This document shows, one piece after another, positions 1,932-42,156 of a stretch of DNA of 64,000 bases (positions are counted from its first letter, which is position 1; each line of letters begins with the position of its first letter). The stretch lies in the NCBI RefSeq assembly GCF_057098645.1, contig NZ_CM169472.1. The stretch is one strand, 5' to 3'. Both the position numbers and the translations under genes were made by a program. The notes below the pieces were generated by a model. That model did not search any database. It was not told the origin of the DNA and saw nothing but the letters and a program-made list of their open reading frames with translations.

Positions 1932-3188
1932 ATGAATCTTAAGCTGCAGCTGAAAATCCTCTCTTTTCTGCAGTTCTGTCTGTGGGGAAGTTGGCTGACG
2001 ACCCTCGGCTCCTATATGTTTGTTACCCTGAAGTTTGACGGTGCTTCTATTGGCGCAGTTTATAGTTCACTGGGTATCGCCGCGGTCTTTATGCCTGCGC
2101 TGCTGGGGATTGTGGCCGACAAATGGTTAAGTGCGAAATGGGTATATGCCATTTGCCACACCATTGGCGCTATCACGCTGTTCATGGCGGCACAGGTCAC
2201 GACGCCGGAAGCGATGTTCCTTGTGATATTGATTAACTCGTTTGCTTATATGCCAACGCTTGGGTTAATCAACACCATCTCTTACTATCGCCTGCAAAAT
2301 GCCGGGATGGATATCGTTACTGACTTCCCGCCAATCCGTATCTGGGGCACCATCGGCTTTATCATGGCAATGTGGGTGGTGAGCCTGTCTGGCTTCGAAT
2401 TAAGCCACATGCAGCTGTATATTGGCGCAGCACTTTCCGCCATTCTGGTTCTGTTTACCCTGACTCTGCCGCATATTCCGGTTGCTAAACAGCAAGCGAA
2501 TCAGAGCTGGACAACCCTGCTGGGCCTCGATGCATTCGCGCTGTTTAAAAACAAGCGTATGGCAATCTTCTTCATCTTCTCAATGCTGCTGGGCGCGGAA
2601 CTGCAGATTACCAACATGTTCGGTAATACCTTCCTGCACAGCTTCGACAAAGATCCGATGTTTGCCAGCAGCTTTATTGTGCAGCATGCGTCAATCATCA
2701 TGTCGATTTCGCAGATCTCTGAAACCCTGTTCATTCTGACCATCCCGTTCTTCTTAAGCCGCTACGGTATTAAGAACGTAATGATGATCAGTATTGTGGC
2801 GTGGATCCTGCGTTTTGCGCTGTTTGCTTACGGCGACCCGACTCCGTTCGGTACTGTACTGCTGGTACTGTCGATGATCGTTTACGGTTGCGCATTCGAC
2901 TTCTTCAACATCTCTGGTTCGGTGTTTGTCGAAAAAGAAGTTAGCCCGGCAATTCGCGCCAGTGCACAAGGGATGTTCCTGATGATGACTAACGGCTTCG
3001 GCTGTATCCTCGGCGGCATCGTGAGCGGTAAAGTTGTTGAGATGTACACCCAAAACGGCATTACCGACTGGCAGACCGTATGGTTGATTTTCGCTGGTTA
3101 CTCCGTGGTTCTGGCCTTCGCGTTCATGGCGATGTTCAAATATAAACACGTTCGTGTCCCGACAGGTACACAGACGGTTAGCCACTAA
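1932..3188 (+). CDS. nupG: Nucleoside:H+ symporter NupG
   Basis: ORF beginning MNLKLQLKILSFLQFCLWGSW..., about 418 aa multi-TM permease; the listed ORF starts 16 codons earlier but the internal ATG at 1932 fits the known N-terminus. Confidence 0.9.
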   Translation: MNLKLQLKILSFLQFCLWGSWLTTLGSYMFVTLKFDGASIGAVYSSLGIAAVFMPALLGIVADKWLSAKWVYAICHTIGAITLFMAAQVTTPEAMFLVILINSFAYMPTLGLINTISYYRLQNAGMDIVTDFPPIRIWGTIGFIMAMWVVSLSGFELSHMQLYIGAALSAILVLFTLTLPHIPVAKQQANQSWTTLLGLDAFALFKNKRMAIFFIFSMLLGAELQITNMFGNTFLHSFDKDPMFASSFIVQHASIIMSISQISETLFILTIPFFLSRYGIKNVMMISIVAWILRFALFAYGDPTPFGTVLLVLSMIVYGCAFDFFNISGSVFVEKEVSPAIRASAQGMFLMMTNGFGCILGGIVSGKVVEMYTQNGITDWQTVWLIFAGYSVVLAFAFMAMFKYKHVRVPTGTQTVSH

Positions 3189-3203
3189 TTACGCAAAGAA
3201 AAA

Positions 3204-3233
3204 CGGGTCGCCAGAAGGCGACCCGTTTTTTTT
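3204..3233. terminator. Bidirectional rho-independent terminator between convergent nupG and speC
   Basis: GC-rich inverted repeat cgggtcgcc-agaa-ggcgacccg followed by a T-run on the + strand and an A-run 5' of it. Confidence 0.55.
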
Positions 3234-3237
3234 ATTC

Positions 3238-5373
3238 TTACTTCAACACATAACCGTACAACCGTTTCATGCCATCCGCATCGGTTTCGCTATAAACACC
3301 TTGCAGCTCCGGCGAAAATCCCGGCAACAAATTCACCCCTTCTTCCAGTGCAAGGAAATAACGTTGAACCGCCCCACCCCAGACTTCCCCGGGTACCACG
3401 CAAAGCACGCCAGGTGGATAAGGCAACGCCCCTTCTGCCGCAATTCGCCCTTCGGCATCACGAATCCGCACCAACTCCACGTCACCGCGAATATAAGCGC
3501 TATGCGCATCCTGGGGGTTCATCACCACTGACGGGAAACTCTGCTGGCGGAACATCGCTTTTTGTAGGTCTTTGACGTCGAAACTGACATACAGATCGTG
3601 CATCTCCTGACACAACTGGCGCAGGGTGTAGTCGCGATAGCGCACCGGATATTTGTTATAAACGCTCGGCAACACCTCAGCCAGCGGCGAGTCATCCTCA
3701 ATATGCTGTTCAAATTGCGCCAGCATCGCCACCAGTTGTGCCAGCTTCTCTTGGCTTTCCGCCGGAGTTAATAAGAACAGAATGGAGTTGAGATCGCACT
3801 TCTCCGGCACAATGCCGTTCTCACGCAGATAGTGCGCCAGAATCGTCGCCGGAACGCCAAAGTCGCTATACTCGCCGGTTTCGGCATCGATACCTGGTGT
3901 AGTGAGTAACAGCTTGCACGGATCAACAAAATACTGATCCGCGGCATATCCTTCAAAGCCGTGCCACTTCGCCCCCGGCTCAAAACTGAAAAAACGGCGG
4001 TCGCTGGCTAACACTGATGTCGGATAATCCTGCCACAATTTGCCATCAACAACGGGCGGGATAAACGGGCGGAACAGCTTACAGCGCGCAAGAATAGCCT
4101 TGCGCGACTCAATACCCAACTCAACGCACTCAGCCCACAGCCGACGCCCACTCTCCCCTTCATGAATTTTGGCGTTAACATCCAGTGCAGCAAACAGCGG
4201 ATAGAAAGGGCTGGTAGAAGCATGGAGCATAAAGGCGTTATTCAACCGCTTATGCGGGCAAAAACGCGCCTGTCCGCGGATATGGTTATCTTTTTTATGG
4301 ATCTGCGACGTCTGTGAGAATCCCGCCTGCTGTTTGTGCACCGACTGAGTCACAAAGATCCCTGGATCGTTTTCGTTAAGTTCTAACAGCAGCGGCGAGC
4401 TATCCGCCATCATCGGGATAAACTGTTCGTAACCGACCCACGCGGAATCAAACAGAATGTAATCACACAGATGCCCAATGGTATCGATCACCTGACGGGC
4501 GTTATAGACAGTGCCGTCATAGGTTCCCAGCTGAATAATCGCCAGGCGAAACGGGCGCGGCAGGTCGGCTTTTTCTGGCGCAACGTCGCGAATTTGCTGG
4601 CGCAGATACTCTTCATTAAAACAGTGCGCATCAATACCGCCAATGAAACCAAACGGGTTGCGTGAAGCTTCCAGATAGACCGGCGTCGCCCCCGCCTGAA
4701 TCAGCGCGCCGTGATGATTCGACTTATGGTTGTTACGGTCGAAGAGCACCAGATCGCCACGCGTTAATAGCGCATTCGTCACCACTTTATTCGCTGCCGA
4801 TGTGCCGTTCAGTACAAAATAGGTTTTATCGGCATGAAAGACTTTGGCTGCGAATTTCTGCGCATCTTTCGCCGATCCTTCATGAATAAGCAGATCGCCC
4901 AATTTTACGTCAGCATTACACATATCGGCGCGAAAGACGTTCTCACCAAAGAAATCGTAAAAATGGCGTCCGGCAGGATGCTTTTTAAAAAACGCACCAT
5001 GTTGATGCCCAGGGCAAGCAAAGGTGCTGTTGCCCATCTCAACGTACTGCGTCAGCGTGTCATAAAACGGTGGCAGCAAATTCTCTTCATACTGACAGGC
5101 TGCGGATTCCAGCTCCAGCCAATGCTGCTCGTTGCCGTTGATTACCGCCGTAACGCCCGCAGGTAATTCAACAGCATGTTCGGAATACAAAAACACCGGT
5201 AGATGAAAACCGGTGCGCTTAAGCAACGTAAGAATGCCACTGCGACTATCCGCAGCGGTAATGACGACTGCCGCGACGTCCGTAAAATCAGTATCTCCCA
5301 ACGCCACCACGCGGCGATGAGTAGAAAGTCGGGATACCAGTTCACTACTGGCGGCAATATTCATTGATTTCAT
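3238..5373 (-). CDS. speC: Ornithine decarboxylase (biosynthetic), SpeC
   Basis: Long ORF; internal start MKSMNIAASSELVSRLSTHRRVVALGDTDFTD... gives 711 aa; fold-type I PLP decarboxylase features; conserved position next to nupG. Confidence 0.9.
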   Translation of the reverse strand: MKSMNIAASSELVSRLSTHRRVVALGDTDFTDVAAVVITAADSRSGILTLLKRTGFHLPVFLYSEHAVELPAGVTAVINGNEQHWLELESAACQYEENLLPPFYDTLTQYVEMGNSTFACPGHQHGAFFKKHPAGRHFYDFFGENVFRADMCNADVKLGDLLIHEGSAKDAQKFAAKVFHADKTYFVLNGTSAANKVVTNALLTRGDLVLFDRNNHKSNHHGALIQAGATPVYLEASRNPFGFIGGIDAHCFNEEYLRQQIRDVAPEKADLPRPFRLAIIQLGTYDGTVYNARQVIDTIGHLCDYILFDSAWVGYEQFIPMMADSSPLLLELNENDPGIFVTQSVHKQQAGFSQTSQIHKKDNHIRGQARFCPHKRLNNAFMLHASTSPFYPLFAALDVNAKIHEGESGRRLWAECVELGIESRKAILARCKLFRPFIPPVVDGKLWQDYPTSVLASDRRFFSFEPGAKWHGFEGYAADQYFVDPCKLLLTTPGIDAETGEYSDFGVPATILAHYLRENGIVPEKCDLNSILFLLTPAESQEKLAQLVAMLAQFEQHIEDDSPLAEVLPSVYNKYPVRYRDYTLRQLCQEMHDLYVSFDVKDLQKAMFRQQSFPSVVMNPQDAHSAYIRGDVELVRIRDAEGRIAAEGALPYPPGVLCVVPGEVWGGAVQRYFLALEEGVNLLPGFSPELQGVYSETDADGMKRLYGYVLK

Positions 5374-6857: not shown

Positions 6858-8120
6858 ATGGCACTGACTGACGCAAAAATCCGGGCTGCAAAGCCCACTG
6901 ACAAGGCTTATAAACTCACTGACGGGGCCGGCATGTTCCTGCTGGTTCATCCTAATGGTTCCCGTTACTGGCGTCTCCGTTATCGTATTCTGGGTAAGGA
7001 GAAAACCCTGGCACTTGGTGTGTATCCCGAAGTTTCTCTCTCCGAAGCTCGTACAAAACGGGATGAGGCCCGAAAACTGATTTCGGAGGGGGTTGACCCT
7101 TGCGAACAGAAAAGAGCTAAAAAAGTAGTCCCTGATTTACAACTCTCTTTTGAACATATTGCACGACGCTGGCATGCCAGTAATAAACAATGGGCACAAT
7201 CACACAGCGATAAAGTACTCAAAAGCCTCGAGACACACGTTTTCCCCTTTATCGGCAACCGGGATATCACAACACTCAGTACCCCGGAGCTGCTTATCCC
7301 TGTTCGTGCTGCAGAAGCTAAACAAATTTATGAAATCGCCAGTCGTCTGCAGCAAAGAATATCTGCTGTAATGCGTTATGCCGTACAGTCTGGCATCATC
7401 AGATATAACCCGGCTCTGGATATGGCTGGTGCATTGACCACGGTAAAACGCCAGCATCGCCCTGCTCTGGATCTTTCACGCCTGCCTGAACTTCTGTCGC
7501 GTATTGACGGTTATAAAGGCCAGCCTGTCACCCGACTGGCAGTTATGCTGAATTTACTGGTTTTTATTCGTTCCAGTGAACTCAGATATGCCCGCTGGTC
7601 TGAAATTGATATTGACAATGCCATGTGGACTATTCCAGCCGAACGCGAACCTCTGCCAGGCGTAAAATTTTCATACCGGGGCTCCAAGATGCGAACACCA
7701 CATCTTGTGCCACTCAGCCAACAGGCTGTAGCCATACTGGCAGAACTTCAGACATGGGCAGGTGAAAATGGTCTGATCTTTACGGGAGCACATGACCCAC
7801 GTAAACCAATCAGTGAAAACACCGTAAATAAAGCCCTGAGGGTTATGGGGTATGACACAACCCAGGATGTCTGTGGTCATGGATTCCGGGCGATGGCATG
7901 TAGTGCATTAATAGAATCAGGTTTGTGGTCCCGCGATGCTGTAGAACGCCAGATGAGCCATCAGGAGCGTAATGGTGTACGTGCTGCGTATATCCATAAA
8001 GCCGAACATCTGGAAGAACGTCGACTTATGCTACAGTGGTGGGCAGATTTTCTGGATGCGAACAGAGAACAATGTATCAGCCCGTTTGAATATGCAAAGA
8101 TTAACAATCCATTAAAATAG
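6858..8120 (+). CDS. P4-type tyrosine integrase (phage/island integrase)
   Basis: 420 aa ORF MALTDAKIRAAKPTDKAYKLTDGAGMFLLVHPNGSRYWRLRYRILGKEKTLALGVYPEVSLSEAR... typical N-terminus of P4-like integrases; sits immediately 3' of a tRNA gene. Confidence 0.9.
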   Translation: MALTDAKIRAAKPTDKAYKLTDGAGMFLLVHPNGSRYWRLRYRILGKEKTLALGVYPEVSLSEARTKRDEARKLISEGVDPCEQKRAKKVVPDLQLSFEHIARRWHASNKQWAQSHSDKVLKSLETHVFPFIGNRDITTLSTPELLIPVRAAEAKQIYEIASRLQQRISAVMRYAVQSGIIRYNPALDMAGALTTVKRQHRPALDLSRLPELLSRIDGYKGQPVTRLAVMLNLLVFIRSSELRYARWSEIDIDNAMWTIPAEREPLPGVKFSYRGSKMRTPHLVPLSQQAVAILAELQTWAGENGLIFTGAHDPRKPISENTVNKALRVMGYDTTQDVCGHGFRAMACSALIESGLWSRDAVERQMSHQERNGVRAAYIHKAEHLEERRLMLQWWADFLDANREQCISPFEYAKINNPLK

Positions 8121-8127
8121 TAATCAT

Positions 8128-8157
8128 CCCGGGCAGCCAGCCCGGGAATTATTTTCT
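8128..8157 (+). terminator. Terminator-like hairpin after the integrase gene
   Basis: cccgggcagccagcccggg perfect inverted repeat followed by a T-rich run. Confidence 0.45.
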
Positions 8158-8305
8158 GAATATTTTTCTTTGTGAGTAACTGGAAAAAGGATAGCGAAGT
8201 AAATTACTTTAATGAATTATTCCAGGGGCTCATTAAAGTTCTTTCGTAATACTTTGTAGTCAAACACGTTATGGCTGGCATCAAAAACCAGGTAATGACT
8301 CCAAC

Positions 8306-8794
8306 TTATTGATAGTGTTTTATGTTCAGATAATGCCCGATGACCTTGTCATGCAGCTCCACCGATTTTGAGAACGACAGTGACTTCCGTCCCAGCCTTG
8401 CCAGATGTTGTCTCAGATTATGTCGCTCAATGCGCTGAGTGTAACGCTTGCTGATAACGTGCAGCTTTCCCTTCAGGCGTGATTCATACAGCGGCCAGCC
8501 ATCCGTCATCTATACCACGACCTCAAAGGCCGACAGCAGGCTCAGAATACGCTCCAGTGTGGCCAGAGTGCAGACGTGCGCCACAACCGTCCTCCGTATC
8601 CTGTCATACGCGTAAAACAGCCAGCGCTGACGTGATTTAGCACCGACGTAGCCCCACTGTTCGTCCATTTCAGCGCAGACAATCACATCACTGCCCGGTT
8701 GTATGCGCGAGGTTACCGACTGCGGCCTGAGTTTTTTAAGTGACGTAAAACCGTGTTGAGGCCAACGCCCATAATGCGTGCACTGGCGCGACAT
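8306..8794 (-). pseudogene. insB: IS1 insB interrupted by an in-frame TAG
   Basis: Two in-frame ORFs (8510-8794 and 8306-8509) separated by TAG at 8510-8512; the reference has a Trp codon at this position as I recall (...VVIWMTDGW vs ...VVV*MTDGW here). Confidence 0.75.
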
Positions 8795-8988
8795 CCGACG
8801 CCATTCATGGCCATATCAATGATTTTCTGGTGCTTACCGGGCTGAAAGGCGGTGTAAGTGAACTGTAGTTGCCATGTTTTACGGCAATGAGAGCAGAGAT
8901 AGCGCTGATGTCCGGCAGTGCTTTTGCCGTTACGCACCACGCCTTCAGTAGCGGAGCAGGAAGGACATCTGATGGAAATGGAAGCCAC
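8713..8988 (-). CDS. insA: IS1 InsA
   Basis: 91 aa [47 protein letters not shown]... zinc-finger InsA. Confidence 0.9.
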
Positions 8989-9214
8989 GCAAGCACCTTA
9001 AAATCACCATCATACACTAAATCAGTAAGTTGGCAGCATTACCGAAATCCCCATCCTTTAGGGCAGTGAGGATGTCAATAATAGCAGACCACATCATGAG
9101 TCATTTTGACCGACACATGCCAGAAGCAGAGGCTCCATCCCATTTTATACCTACCCTATAACACTTAGAAAAACAACATGTTAAAAATGTCTATTGGAAA
9201 CAATTTTATTTCCA

Positions 9215-37205: not shown

Positions 37206-37905
37206 GTGAGATGTGATCTAATTGATTGTGCTAGCAATTTCAAGGATATCACCACTATGCCTGCACGTTCATTATGCCAAAAATTCCTTAAAAACATACT
37301 GGCCACTTTGCATTTCTACCATCAAAAATCACTGATTGACGCAACAAATGCTGTAATAAATGGCGCTTCCCTCACGCTTAGCAGCATCGGGCGTCATTTA
37401 ACCAGACAGCATTAGTTAAAAACAAGATAAAGCGGGTGGATTGACCGTTGGGGAATTCTCAACTGAAAAATGATCTTCCCACCATTTTTCAGTTGGTTAC
37501 TCAAAAAAATACGCTGAGAATGTTCGTGTTGTTGTACGCCTTCGCCAGCAGTGGCAGGATGTTCAGGAGGAGTGTCGGCAGGCAGAGGTCGGATCAGGAG
37601 AGCGGCTGCGTAATGCCCTGCTGAATGTGGATTATACCACCAGTTTTGAACTGCCTTTTCGTCTGCTTTTAACCCGCACGTCACAGCTGATTGCTGTGCT
37701 TTGGGAAGAATGGGATATCAGCCAGAAAAATGTGGTGTTTAACGATAAACGCTTTGGTTGCGTGTATAGCCTGAAGGCCAGTCTTTCCGGCGTGCGGATA
37801 CATTCCGGTATCATCTGTCTCACCGTATTCGCCGGATGGTTGGGAATGAAATACATCATCGCCTTGGCAGCAGATTGCCCGGAAAGTGAAAGCGCTCCGT
37901 GAATG
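37206..37905 (+). pseudogene. IS4-family (IS10-like) transposase remnant, frameshifted and 3'-truncated
   Basis: Fragments ...SLTLSSIGRHLTRQH*, ...VKNKIKRVD*, ...IAVLWEEWDISQKN... in different frames resemble the IS10 transposase N-terminal region (TLTLTELGRNLPTKA..., NIKRIDRLLGN..., IVLVDWSDIREQKR as I recall it). Confidence 0.45.
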
Positions 37906-38082
37906 ACTTAAGTATGCGCTAGAGGAGGGATTACTGGTGACCGCACTGGACGGTCTGTTCTGGTCTGGTAGTCAGCGTATTGCGGAAGATATTCTGTGTC
38001 GTTACGGGGAAGTCATCTTCACAGGGATCTTCAGTCAGTTAGTATTACCGACATTCATTCACCAACTTACCGGAGATAATCG

Positions 38083-38412
38083 ATGTCAAAACCCCGATGG
38101 ACCATTGAACAGAAAAGGCAGCACGTTGCTGCCTGGCGCGCCAGTGGTCTTACACGTCAGCAATACTGTGAACTCAACGATATTCCCTTCACATCACTTC
38201 GCGAATGGCCGCAGGATGTCGCAAAAGCTGAACGCCGGGCAAATGAACCGACCGTTCTTCCCGTTCATATTGCGCCACCACTGCATGCTGATGTACCACA
38301 GCCCGTCACGAATGAGCCAGTCACGCTCTTCCTTCCCGGCGGAGTACGGATGTGCTGTCAGCCGTCACAACTTACCGATGTCTTCAGGGCGCTCAAATAT
38401 GCTCAGTCCTGA
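38083..38412 (+). CDS. IS66-family accessory protein TnpA (Orf1)
   Basis: 109 aa MSKPRWTIEQKRQHVAAWRASGLTRQQYCELNDIPFTSLREW... Confidence 0.75.
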   Translation: MSKPRWTIEQKRQHVAAWRASGLTRQQYCELNDIPFTSLREWPQDVAKAERRANEPTVLPVHIAPPLHADVPQPVTNEPVTLFLPGGVRMCCQPSQLTDVFRALKYAQS

Positions 38413-38791
38413 TAATGTCTTCATCGCGATTAAACCTGTTGACATGCGCCGGGGCATCGACACACTGACGCAGTATATACAGGATGAACTCCGGTCGACA
38501 TGGCATGAGGGAGCCGCCTTCGTCTTTGTTAACAAAGACCGTTCGCGTATCAAAGTTCTCCGGTGGGATAAACACGGGGTGTGGTTGTGTACCCGCCGTC
38601 TTCACAAAGGCAGCTTCCGCTGGCCACGTGCAAATGATGCTGCCTGGCACCTCACTCCCGACGAGTTTAACTGGCTGATTGCCGGTGTTGACTGGCAGCA
38701 GGTTAAGGGACATGGCCTGACGAAATGGGTCTGGCAAAATGAACCTGAACTGCGCCCTGAAAACACGCAAAACACACTGCTAACTCACTGA
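38399..38791 (+). CDS. IS66-family TnpB (IS66 Orf2-like)
   Basis: About 130 aa ...FIAIKPVDMRRGIDTLTQYIQDELRSTWHEGAAFVFVNKDRSRIKVLRWDKHGVWLCTRRLHKGSFRWP...; start overlaps the TnpA stop. Confidence 0.75.
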   Translation: MLSPDNVFIAIKPVDMRRGIDTLTQYIQDELRSTWHEGAAFVFVNKDRSRIKVLRWDKHGVWLCTRRLHKGSFRWPRANDAAWHLTPDEFNWLIAGVDWQQVKGHGLTKWVWQNEPELRPENTQNTLLTH

Positions 38792-38797
38792 AAAATA

Positions 38798-39830
38798 ATG
38801 AATATTCGTATCCGGAGTGGTATGCTCCCCTGTATGGATATCTCCGCTCTCAACACCACGAATGACATCGAAAAACTGCGTGCTATGGCACTTGCCATGG
38901 TACAAAAAGTCATGTCGGAGAATGCCGAAAAAGAGCGGGAATTACTGGAGAAAAGCCGGCGCATCCAGCTTCTGGAAGAAATGCTGAAACTGGTTCGTCA
39001 ACAGCGCTTCGGTAAAAAATGTGAAACGCTGGCTGGTATGCAACGCTCCCTGTTCGAAGAGGATGTTGATGTCGATATCGCCGAGCTCACCGCACATCTG
39101 GATAAACTGCTCCCGCAATCCCCTGAAGAAGACGAAAAAGCGTCCCGTTCACGCCCGATACGCAAACCCTTACCGGCTCATCTTCCACGGGTGGAAAAAA
39201 TTATCCAGCCGGACACTGACCATTGCCCTGAATGTGACGAGCCGCTGCACTATATCCGTGATGCGGTGAGTGAAAAGCTGGAGTATATTCCCGCTCACTT
39301 TGTGGTGAACTGTTATGTCCGTCCGCAATACAGTTGTCCCTGTTGCCAGAAGGTGTTCAGCGGTGAAATGCCGGCACATATCCTCCCGAAAAGTGCCGTT
39401 GAGCCATCAGTCATCGCACAGGTGATCATCAATAAATACGGTGAGCACCTGCCTCTGTATCGCCAGCAACAGGTCTTTGCCCGTTCAGATGTCGGACTGC
39501 CCGTCAGTTCGATGGCTGACATGGTTGGCGCGGCAGGGGCCGCATTATCCCCCCTCGCGGCGTTACTCCATCGCGAATTGATAAGCCGTCCGGTGGTGCA
39601 TGCAGATGAGACTACCCTGAAGATCCTGAACACGAAGAAAGGCGGTAAATCCTGCTCCGGTTATCTGTGGGCATACGTCAGTGGAGAAAGGACGGGACCG
39701 TCAGTTGTGTGCTTCGACTGCCGGACCGGACGTAGCCATGAGTATCCTGAAAACTGGCTTCAGGGCTGGGGCGGGACGCTGGTTGTCGACGGACATAAAG
39801 CTTACCGGACTCTGGCAAACAAAGTGCCGG
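38798..39830 (+). pseudogene. IS66-family transposase TnpC, N-terminal about 340 aa only (zinc finger + first two DDE motifs), 3' end replaced
   Basis: RFGKK, PLPAHLPR, CPECDEPL...CPCCQK, HLPLYRQ, VHADETT, GYLWAYV and VVDGHKAY motifs in IS66 order; similarity ends near aa 340; the conserved C-terminal GRKNW region is absent. Confidence 0.7.
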
Positions 39831-40441
39831 AGCTGGCGAATATCATCGGTCATCACGCGGGTATTGATGACAATACAGCGGCAAAAGCCATTGCCCATGC
39901 CATTCTCGGTGGTGTGACAGCAGCCCTTCAGGGCAACAGTGCGGCAGCAGGCGCAATTGGTGCGGGTACTGGTGAAGTGATCTCGTCAGCCATTGCGAAA
40001 AGCCTCTACCCGGACGTAGATCCGTCGAAACTGACAGAAGATCAGAAGCAAACCGTAAGCACGCTGGCAACGCTGTCAGCGGGTATGGCTGGCGGCATTG
40101 CCAGTGGCGATGTGGCTGGCACAGCTGCAGGGGCTGGTGTTGGGAAGAACATTGCTGAGAATAACTTGGTTGGTGGCACAGAGTCCGAGCAGAGCAAAGC
40201 TGCTCAGACGCATGGCGCAGATGTACTTTCCTGTAACGATGCTCCAGGCGGTGAAGCCTGTAAGCGAGGAGAAGCAGTCAATAAAGCGTATGCCGGAGCG
40301 TTGGCCACTGGTAGTGTAGCTCTCTTACCTGGCGGTGCTCAGGCCATGTGGGCTCTTGGCACAGGTGCAAATGCAGGAATTGGTTACATGGTAGATAGTT
40401 CAGTTGATCCTGAAAATGCAATCATTGCAGGATGGGTCTGA
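39831..40441 (+). other. Polymorphic-toxin-like fragment in frame with the truncated tnpC: Gly/Ala-rich pretoxin region with ENN motif (KNIAENN) plus about 90 aa glycine-zipper-like C-terminal piece; stop supplied by the IS629 terminal TGA
   Basis: ...SLYPDVDPSKLTEDQKQTVSTLATLSAGMAGGIASGDVAGTAAGAGVGKNIAENNLVGG... resembles CdiA pretoxin (PT-VENN) regions; the ORF ends exactly at the IS629 boundary (40439-40441). Confidence 0.45.
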
Positions 40442-40480
40442 ACCGCCCCGGGTTTCCTGGAGAGTGTTTTATCTGTGAAC

Positions 40481-41371
40481 TCAGGCTGCCAGATCATCGT
40501 TTCCGATGGAAGCATAATAAGCTTTTTCTGCTTCTGCCGGAGGAGTATGGCCCAGCCTTTCCAGCAATCGTCGATTGTTATACCAGTCCACCCACGTGAG
40601 TGTGGCCAGTTCCACTTCTGCACGGTTTTTCCAGCTCTTACGGTGTATTACCTCCGCTTTGTAAAGACCATTGATGCTCTCCGCCATCGCGTTGTCATAC
40701 GAGTCGCCTGTACTTCCTGTTGATGCCAGTAATCCGGCTTCCTTAAGCCGCTGTGTGTAGGCCAGCGATACATACTGAGAACCTTTATCACTGTGATGGA
40801 CCGTGCCGGACGGTCGACGGGCCCATAACGCCTGCTCCAGTGCATCCAGCACGAATGTCGTCTCCATGGACGATGAGACCCGCCACCCCACAATGTATCC
40901 GGCAAACACATCAATGATGAACGCCACATAGACGAAGCCCTGCCATGTGCTGACGTAAGTAAAATCAGCCACCCACAGCTGGTCAGGTCGTTCTGCCACG
41001 AACTGACGGTTTACGCGGTCGCCTGCGGCAACGGCTTTCCGGCTGATGGTCGTACGGACCTTTTTACCCCGGAGAACACCGGCAAGTCCCATAACCGCCA
41101 TGAGACGTGCCACAGTGCATCTGGCCACTCTGATACCTTCCCGTAACAACTGACGCCAGACTTTACGCACACCGTATACCTTGTGATTTTCATCGTATAC
41201 GCGCTGTATCTCTTTCTTCAGCCAGTCATCGCGCTGCGCACGGGCACTGCGTTTATCCGGATGATGTCGCTGTTGCTGACAGTGGTAATACGTTGACGGG
41301 GCAATATGCAGTTCGCTGCATAGCGGTCCGACCCCGTACTGCTCACGCAGCTTATCCAGCAGTGGCATCAT
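40481..41371 (-). CDS. IS629 OrfB
   Basis: Identical 296 aa translation to 18174-19064. Confidence 0.9.
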
Positions 41372-41694
41372 TTTTTCCAGAGGCGGTCGAACTCCGCCTT
41401 CGCAAAATAAGCGGAAGCCTGGCGAAGGATATCGTTACTGCGGCGCAGTTCACGATTTTCACGCTCCAGCTCTTTCAGACGCTGACGTTCAGCGGTGGTG
41501 AGCCCTCCATCACCGCCCCCGGTATCCCGCTCATGCTGGCGAACCCAGACACGCAGAGTCTCCGGCGTACAGCCAATCTTTGGAGCAATGGAACAAATTG
41601 TCGCCCATTGTGAGTCATATTCGCCCTGACTTTCCAGAACCATACGGACTGCCCGTTGACGGACTTCAGGGGAAAAACGAGTATTTTTAGTCAT
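41368..41694 (-). CDS. IS629 OrfA
   Basis: Identical 108 aa translation to 17851-18177. Confidence 0.9.
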
Positions 41695-41745
41695 CCTGTT
41701 TACCTCTTTCTCAGGAAGTTTAGTCTCCAGGATTCCCGGGGCGGT

Positions 41746-42156
41746 TCAATCAGTGTTTACTTCCCTGGCCTCGCTACCATTGGTATAGCTACTACAGTCT
41801 TCATCACTGCCACGCTCATTCTCACAGACATGTTTCTCGACCTTTCCAAGATATCTGACGCCTTTTCGCGGAATGGTTTTAATTAGAGAACTCGACAAAC
41901 CAGCGATGTCTAATGCCTTTCTAAGCATGTAAATCTGCCCATAATAACTGCTGTCGCTTACCGAACCTTTCTGCTCCCGCCAAACCTCATTGATAATATG
42001 TTGCTTATCGGATTCTCCCTGTAGTAAAAGGAGTAAAAATCGATAGCCGTTTTCAGACAGATTAATTACATTGCCTGTACTGGTGGTGATACGTCGAGAC
42101 GCTGGGTAAAACTTAACTCCCTGCCCTAAAGAAAAATAAAAACGGTCATCGCTCAT
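41746..42156 (-). pseudogene. ToxR/CadC-like winged-helix (OmpR/PhoB-type) transcriptional regulator, N-terminal 136 aa; 3' end truncated by IS629
   Basis: ...NGYRFLLLLLQGESDKQHIINEVWREQKGSVSDSSYYGQIYMLRKALD...IKTIPRKGVRYLG... winged-helix pattern; the stop codon is the IS629 terminal TGA. Confidence 0.55.

Follow-up and report, generated by a model that had tools for sequence, protein, structure and literature searches.

An IS66-family tnpC gene joined in frame to a CdiA toxin fragment and closed by an IS629 terminus, probably a decayed chimeric pseudogene of an Escherichia coli genomic island

The window analysed here (the whole 64,000-nucleotide stretch of Escherichia coli DNA) includes an open reading frame of 547 amino acids with an ATG start (38798..40441, plus strand). 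Its 5' part belongs to a truncated copy of the IS66-family element ISEc49 (37991..39832, plus strand), consisting of the left end, tnpA, tnpB and the first 345 codons of tnpC; from 37991 or 37996, depending on the copy compared, to 39832, the window is 98% identical at the nucleotide level to the ISEc49 copies of two E. coli plasmids. Both genes upstream of tnpC are intact: tnpA (38083..38412, plus strand, 109 aa) encodes a protein identical to WP_000042910.1 of the intact ISEc49 (NCBIfam IS66 TnpA, E=1.8e-13), and tnpB (38399..38791, plus strand, 130 aa) corresponds in position to the RefSeq tnpB WP_000950651.1 of a genome bearing the same fusion. The intact ISEc49 copy of NZ_CP065614.1 carries tnpA, tnpB and a tnpC of 533 amino acids, which begins at the same ATG as the 38798-40441 frame. 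The right 0.9 kb or so of ISEc49 (the rest of tnpC and the right terminus) had no match anywhere in the 64-kb window; of the two termini and target duplication that define an IS66 element, the left end is present from about 37991 and the right terminus is missing. Terminal inverted repeats were sought in the reference copy of ISEc49, and no convincing pair was found. A promoter scan upstream of tnpA gave one weak sigma-70-like site (38018-38045), not above the expectation from shuffled sequences. Transcription of the frame is nevertheless plausible, because tnpA, tnpB and the left end of the element are intact, and the sequence suggests that the 547-aa frame may well be transcribed and translated.

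The order of the parts within the frame was established from the list of open reading frames, Pfam and blastp: residues 1-345 of TnpC, a CdiA pre-toxin region with the N-terminus of a toxin, and a stop codon supplied by IS629. Pfam detected LZ_Tnp_IS66 (aa 59-133, E=1.6e-12), zf-IS66 (aa 141-183, E=3.4e-11), DDE_Tnp_IS66 (aa 199-341, covering only positions 2-143 of the 284 in the model), the end of DUF637 (aa 345-389) and PT-VENN (PF04829, aa 409-457, E=1.5e-12); the NCBIfam model of the IS66 transposase, NF033517, was likewise matched only over positions 3-221 of its 387. The transposase half keeps the leucine-zipper and zinc-finger regions (putatively DNA-binding) and the HADETT and VVDGHKAY stretches (the latter at aa 329-336). 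Where the intact ISEc49 TnpC runs on as ...PEITLAGCWAHARRGF..., the chimeric frame runs on as ...PELANIIGHH..., and tnpC codons 346-533 are absent from it, including everything from the CWAHARR motif onward; the part of the DDE_Tnp_IS66 catalytic domain that follows the second Asp is thereby missing, with the CWAH motif and an acidic residue downstream of it that we take to belong to the catalytic region. The last residue derived from TnpC is E345 (nucleotide 39832), and residues specific to CdiA begin at L346. The first-pass annotation, made from the sequence of the window, had recognised an IS66 TnpC N-terminal half ending near residue 340, followed by a polymorphic-toxin-like segment and closed by the terminus of IS629, and all three parts of that description were borne out: the first is ISEc49 TnpC through residue 345, the second is the C-terminus of a CdiA protein (DUF637 and PT-VENN, 93.6% amino acid identity), and the frame closes on a TGA (40439-40441) contributed by the first three bases of a 1310-bp IS629. 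Alignment of an intact TnpC along the whole frame, including its Gly/Ala-rich part, had been named in advance as the observation that would speak against a fusion. In blastp, the intact 533-aa ISEc49 TnpC aligned with residues 1-346 of the frame (its own residues 1-346, 96.5% identity) and nowhere beyond, leaving the Gly/Ala-rich part unmatched.

The alignment against intact tnpC and cdiA that the same annotation had proposed as a way to map the breakpoint placed the junction at 39826-39832. In the three-way alignment, identity to ISEc49 extends through ...AAAGTGCCGGAG (39832) and identity to cdiA starts from GCCGGAGCTGGCG (39826), the two parental sequences thus sharing a 7-bp microhomology (GCCGGAG, 39826..39832, plus strand), or 10 bp with one mismatch if the overlap is extended in the 5' direction. 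The join is in frame (...ANKVPE|LANIIGHH...), and a tryptic peptide spanning it would be VPELANIIGHHAGIDDNTAAK. The junction falls within tnpC, away from the termini of the insertion sequence, and is therefore not a transposition junction. A join at a 7-bp microhomology has the form that an illegitimate deletion or an end-joining event would leave, and, among the possible kinds of illegitimate recombination, the microhomology suggests a deletion. One join in three would fall in frame by chance, and the open frame is therefore no evidence of selection.

The segment derived from cdiA (39833..40438, plus strand) begins in the final stretch of the conserved CdiA body, passes through the pre-toxin domain and breaks off about 90 residues into the variable toxin: it contains the DUF637 tail (39830-39964, plus strand), the PT-VENN domain (40022-40168, plus strand) and, read directly from the sequence, a VENN-type motif, here IAENN (aa 452-456, 40151-40165, plus strand), followed by the toxin region, which contains a cysteine pair (C479/C488). 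From nucleotide 39826 onward, this DNA matches the 3' part of two full-length cdiA genes, those of strains H22 and Rb-3, at 98-99% identity, and residues 344-547 of the frame are 93.6% identical in blastp to the C-terminus of H22 CdiA. The TPS secretion domain, FHA repeats, cdiB and the 5' region of cdiA were found neither in the frame nor in its neighbourhood, where tnpC stands upstream instead. A complete toxin and its cognate cdiI are also absent from the window, the toxin stopping about 90 residues past the motif, where IS629 begins. Toxins of the Rhs/YD-repeat type carry RHS/YD repeats and a core that ends in PxxxxDPxGL ahead of the toxin. A comparison with CdiA or Rhs C-terminal regions had been suggested for this segment; the CdiA type was found and the Rhs type was discarded, since Pfam gave DUF637 and PT-VENN and no RHS domain. 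An IS66 fragment that lies downstream of cdiI in Rb-3 was considered as the reciprocal product of the fusion and rejected, as it belongs to a different member of the IS66 family.

The distribution of the fusion was analysed with a 201-bp probe centred on the junction, compared with 5,426 complete E. coli genomes. The probe was found at 99-100% identity in 25 of them, plus one partial match that still spans the junction; among the bearers are ML35, strains of serotype O103:H2 and isolates from animals and the environment (2015C-3163 is another strain with the uninterrupted allele), and the RefSeq label at the locus in complete genomes is always "tnpC: IS66 family transposase". In the uninterrupted allele, to which the window is 100% identical up to 40438, the open reading frame encodes 664 amino acids (676 from an upstream ATG), with a toxin of 220 residues; the 664-aa protein is present on about 350 public contigs, within a cluster of 428 sequences, and is always named IS66 transposase. 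Directly after it, with a 4-bp overlap, there is an open reading frame of 72 amino acids (MINVLFALF at its start) with two hydrophobic segments, whose product was found on at least 1000 contigs, and then a frameshifted o11-type toxin fragment followed by cdiI-o11. The small two-segment membrane protein is probably the cognate immunity protein of the uninterrupted toxin. A divergent allele was detected in the metagenome contig P0048, with the same junction, a tnpC part split into two open reading frames, a different toxin tip, a different membrane ORF of 81 amino acids and a UPEC536-type orphan downstream, and it shows a later exchange of cassettes downstream of the junction.

The uninterrupted toxin region aligns from end to end with the C-terminus of the full-length H22 CdiA (WP_019842636.1), at 83% identity, and after the motif it had no match in Pfam, NCBIfam or PDB-sequence searches. 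The AlphaFold2 model of the uninterrupted toxin, built on a 42-sequence alignment, had a mean pLDDT of 43, too poor for use. CdiA-CT o10 of EC869, a SecY-dependent ionophore, was suspected from the adjacency of o11 and from the two-segment membrane immunity candidate, and was ruled out: the published cdiI-o10 primers encode MKLINPLKINK and the downstream frame begins with MINVLFALF, and these primers had no match in the window or in any locus compared. No match was found to group 5 (TMC005) of Halvorsen et al. 2024 (PMC11630599), by primer sequences or by the accessions of its S1 Table, and none of the ionophore groups described there shared an accession or a primer match with the toxin. Considering its Gly/Ala-rich, helical composition and its small membrane partner, our best guess is that the toxin would act on membranes in an ionophore-like manner.

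The frame ends at a 1310-bp element of the IS3 family (40439..41748, minus strand; termini TGAACCGCCCCGGG; NCBIfam IS3 transposase, E=4e-94, on an identical copy), with orfA (41368-41694, minus strand, 108 aa) and orfB (40481-41371, minus strand, 296 aa), both taken from the list of open reading frames. We assume it to be IS629 from the RefSeq labels (IS629/IS1203 family) and, in part, from general knowledge. There is no target-site duplication at this copy (flanks ...GGGTC | ATCAG..., that is, GTC against ATC). To its right lies a 3'-truncated gene for a winged-helix (wHTH) regulator beside glcA (41749..42156, minus strand, about the first 135 of 201 codons): from exactly 41749 the DNA is 100% identical to that of O145:H28 RM12761, starting 198 bp inside the 3' end of the regulator gene, whose full length is 606 bp (201 codons), and the match extends into glcA and glcB. 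Other strains continue past 40438 with 3.8 kb that hold the toxin tip, the 72-aa gene, the o11 fragment, cdiI-o11 and the remnants of a restriction enzyme and of an IS; none of this is present anywhere in the window, and neither is the Flp/Tad pilus cluster located upstream of the regulator gene in related strains. In O145:H28, an IS629 stands directly after a LysR gene in place of the whole ISEc49-CDI region, an independent outcome of IS629-associated loss at the same locus.

A second IS629, 100% identical to the first and inverted with respect to it, is located at 17797..19106 (plus strand), some 21 kb away, also without target duplication, and closes off at the far end a 21.3-kb segment (19107-40438) that runs in the opposite direction in most strains. 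Its left flank is DNA found beyond the CDI remnant, next to fecE, in other strains, and on the right it is flanked by a yfjI gene that has lost its first 200 bp; pairing the flanks of the two copies as an inversion model predicts did not reveal a target duplication either way. In MS 196-1, SY033, Res13-Lact-PEA14-20 and Z1323HEC0422 (where it is split), the CDI remnant is enclosed by fec and the yfjI...mhb block and points the other way, indicating that segment 19107-40438 of the window is inverted, with losses at both ends. In EHEC-type strains, IS629 is known to inactivate genes, to delete adjacent DNA and to bring about rearrangements (PMC9943667; PMC3271280), and, in the account that PMC9943667 gives of Kusumoto 2011, excision of the element promoted by IEE leaves behind deletions whose ends are joined at microhomologies. 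This literature would fit both of the rearrangement steps proposed below.

We consider it highly probable that the 547-aa frame is a decayed chimeric pseudogene that arose in two steps, within a genomic island of E. coli associated with tRNA-Phe (pheV). The starting point would have been an ISEc49 upstream of an orphan cdiA-CT/cdiI array, that is, of the leftover 3' toxin cassettes of a CDI locus. In an older step, now common to many strains, an illegitimate deletion would have fused codon 345 of tnpC with the pre-toxin region of cdiA at GCCGGAG, producing, by chance in frame, the 664/676-aa ORF followed by the 72-aa membrane protein and the o11 orphan module. In a younger, lineage-specific step, a rearrangement mediated by IS629 would have set the end of that element after residue 90 or so of the toxin, providing the TGA and removing about 130 C-terminal residues of the toxin, the 72-aa gene, the o11 module and adjacent DNA; the remnant would in this way have come to abut the truncated regulator gene beside glcA, with the 21.3-kb segment between the two IS629 copies inverted compared to other strains. 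The order of the steps follows from the distribution: many genomes carry the tnpC/cdiA junction and lack this IS629, so that the fusion is older than the IS629 event, and the proposal of the first-pass annotation that at least two successive rearrangements are recorded here is supported. It had left open whether IS629 arrived by insertion or by recombination; recombination or deletion agrees with the data, and insertion does not, given the missing target duplication, the foreign right flank and the loss of the rest of the toxin.

Transposases with half a DDE catalytic domain are inactive, and the TnpC part, which keeps only the first half of that domain, should thus not work as a transposase. 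The CdiA part would not act in CDI, lacking the secretion domain, the filament, CdiB and the toxin tip. Should the intact tnpA-tnpB-tnpC signals drive translation of the 547-aa frame, its product is most likely inert and harmless. The anatomy, the breakpoints and the distribution are direct observations; the order of events, the deletion mechanism and the lack of activity are our interpretation.

The alternative that survives best, although we regard it as improbable, is that the fusion is a selected functional gene, in which the IS66 operon gives a silent orphan toxin a promoter and a start codon and the TnpC'-CdiA-CT protein forms, with the 72-aa immunity protein, an addiction pair that stabilises the island, the window being a null derivative, free to lose the immunity gene once the toxin tip had gone. 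Orphan cdiA-CT fragments normally lack initiation signals and are active once supplied with them (PMC3150448), tnpA and tnpB are intact upstream of the fusion, the 664-aa frame with its overlapping 72-aa frame is widespread (about 25 complete genomes and about 350 contigs), and the window has lost the immunity gene along with the toxin tip. The conservation of the uninterrupted allele is nevertheless no argument in favour, as copies that are 100% identical, or nearly so, across diverse strains show neither selection nor neutrality, and their persistence does not need selection. Moreover, the frame was disrupted by insertion sequences in at least 5 of about 26 complete genomes, the lineage of the window being counted among them (an IS3-type element in DLI.6n, IS421 and ISEc23 in SCPM-O-B-7615, IS630 in Z1323HEC0422); together with the split tnpC part of the P0048 allele, these hits argue against selection for the full-length fusion, and the toxin had no hit in Pfam, NCBIfam or PDB-sequence searches. 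The more specific proposal, in which expression signals from the tnpC graft would turn the TnpC'-toxin and the 72-aa protein into an intracellular addiction pair retaining the pheV/pheU island, with the allele of the window as its disarmed derivative, is slightly less probable still.

We give considerably less weight to the possibility that the frame is an assembly chimera produced by collapsed repeats. Regions rich in insertion sequences are prone to misassembly, and the two IS629 junctions of the window are present in no complete RefSeq E. coli genome. The tnpC/cdiA junction lies, on the other hand, in unique sequence and recurs in about 25 independently finished genomes, and the exact truncated protein, with an identical cdiA'|IS629 junction read through, was found on about 12 independent draft contigs from several assemblies (GCA_024357405.1 is one assembly with this allele), indicating that the truncated allele is real and marks a lineage. 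This independent support covers the cdiA'|IS629 junction; the right-hand IS629|wHTH' junction is known from the window alone. The least probable explanation is that IS629, which commonly inserts into genes, simply inserted into the fused frame, whose 100% identity to the uninterrupted allele up to 40438 it would account for: the remainder of the frame should then follow the element directly, and what was found instead is GTC against ATC at the flanks, O145:H28 DNA with the truncated regulator gene by glcA from 41749, and no trace of the following 3.8 kb in the window, so that simple insertion is ruled out here unless the window was misassembled across the IS629 repeat.

The main practical consequence concerns annotation. 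RefSeq WP_000354992.1 and hundreds of copies are named "IS66 family transposase", and their C-terminal half is actually a CdiA pre-toxin region and toxin; consequently, this locus introduces small errors into both the transposase counts and the toxin inventories of E. coli. It also records the erosion of an orphan CDI array by insertion sequences, with a microhomology deletion followed by repeated independent hits of IS629, IS630, IS421 and ISEc23 in separate lineages. It is an ordinary IS-scarred orphan CDI remnant of an already known kind, useful as a worked example and as a warning for annotation; the understanding of CDI, IS66 or IS3 biology is unchanged by it, and its wider use is limited to the misannotation in databases and to the small chance that the uninterrupted allele is an expressed toxin/immunity pair.

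Compared to ISEc49, the copy in the window is alike from the left end to tnpC codon 345 (98% nucleotide identity, tnpA and tnpB intact) and differs in lacking tnpC codons 346-533 and the right terminus. [quoted passage not shown] 2011, PMC3150448). As in orphans of the EC869 type, there is a 3' cdiA fragment with some pre-toxin sequence, a VENN-type motif and a toxin, and in the uninterrupted allele this is followed by a small immunity-like gene, directly upstream of an o11 module. Unlike in those orphans, the cdiA fragment is grafted in frame onto tnpC, neither cdiB nor a full-length cdiA is nearby, and the copy in the window has a truncated toxin and has lost both the immunity gene and the o11 module. 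The uninterrupted toxin resembles the CDI ionophores (PMC11630599) in its Gly/Ala-rich composition, its predicted helical structure, the lack of an enzyme domain and the small two-segment membrane partner, whereas the window, in contrast to the H22 CdiA-CT and to those ionophores, keeps only the first 90 or so residues of the toxin. Finally, the arrangement resembles the deletions and inversions driven by IS629 in EHEC-type strains, both in the IS629 ends that lack target duplications and join non-adjacent DNA and in the identical inverted copies that bracket an inverted segment, and nothing distinctive separates the window from these rearrangements.

The intact chimera, that is, the allele not ended by IS629 (7035-9029 of the locus L001), corresponds to RefSeq WP_000354992.1 and is present on approximately 350 public contigs. 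It is labelled everywhere as 'IS66 family transposase', its C-terminal 320 residues being CdiA pre-toxin and toxin, and the 72-aa ORF located 3' of it is labelled as 'hypothetical protein'.

A metagenome contig (L016, ENA ERZ808041 NODE_886; 217-2417) harbours a divergent allele that shares the TnpC/CdiA junction of the window but differs in its toxin tip, after which come a membrane ORF of 81 aa and a UPEC536-type (Ntox28/CdiI_3) orphan; its tnpC portion is broken into two ORFs. The same junction combined with a different toxin tip and different downstream ORFs implies that toxin cassettes were exchanged later than the TnpC/CdiA fusion. Another variant, the public protein P0088, has apparently lost about 285 bp across the junction (window-equivalent ~39728-40017), bounded by CCGGACGTAG, which occurs at window 39728 and again at 40008; the chimera locus would then have undergone microhomology deletion a second time.

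The two IS629 copies of the window (17797-19106 and 40439-41748) are 100% identical and inverted relative to each other, and neither shows a target duplication. The 21.3-kb segment between them (yfjI', mhb operon, LysR, ISEc49'::cdiA') is reversed in orientation compared to MS 196-1, SY033, Res13 and Z1323HEC0422. At the first copy, the yfjI-family gene is 5'-truncated (19107-20391, first 200 bp missing), and the read-through of the IS629 orfB end, joined in frame to yfjI', generates a 489-aa ORF (18922-20391), which is a further chimeric ORF made by an IS. In Z1323HEC0422, the island is in two separate parts (L014 and L015): the cdiI-o11-IS629-Tad-wHTH-glcA part is retained at pheV, and the ISEc49'::cdiA' part, which an IS630 truncates at window-equivalent 40202, is found 1.3 Mb from there, adjoining nleE/nleB/espL2.

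Other mobile elements of the window include an IS21-family element (22054-24692; istA of 548 aa plus the istB helper ATPase), which is an insertion when compared with O145:H28 RM12761 and MS 196-1; roughly 6 bp of target occur twice, at both match ends around it. The interval from the LysR gene to the left end of ISEc49 (37251-37990) contains what remains of an ISEc60 (IS4-like) transposase and an ECs1377-family/DNA-binding gene; in O145:H28, IS629 is located exactly at window-equivalent 37250, replacing everything as far as the Tad cluster.

In strain Rb-3, a complete cdiA/cdiI pair is followed immediately by a C-terminal fragment of another, different IS66-family transposase (2986-3306 of its cdiA locus, L008), so that elements of the IS66 family are found repeatedly beside CDI loci.
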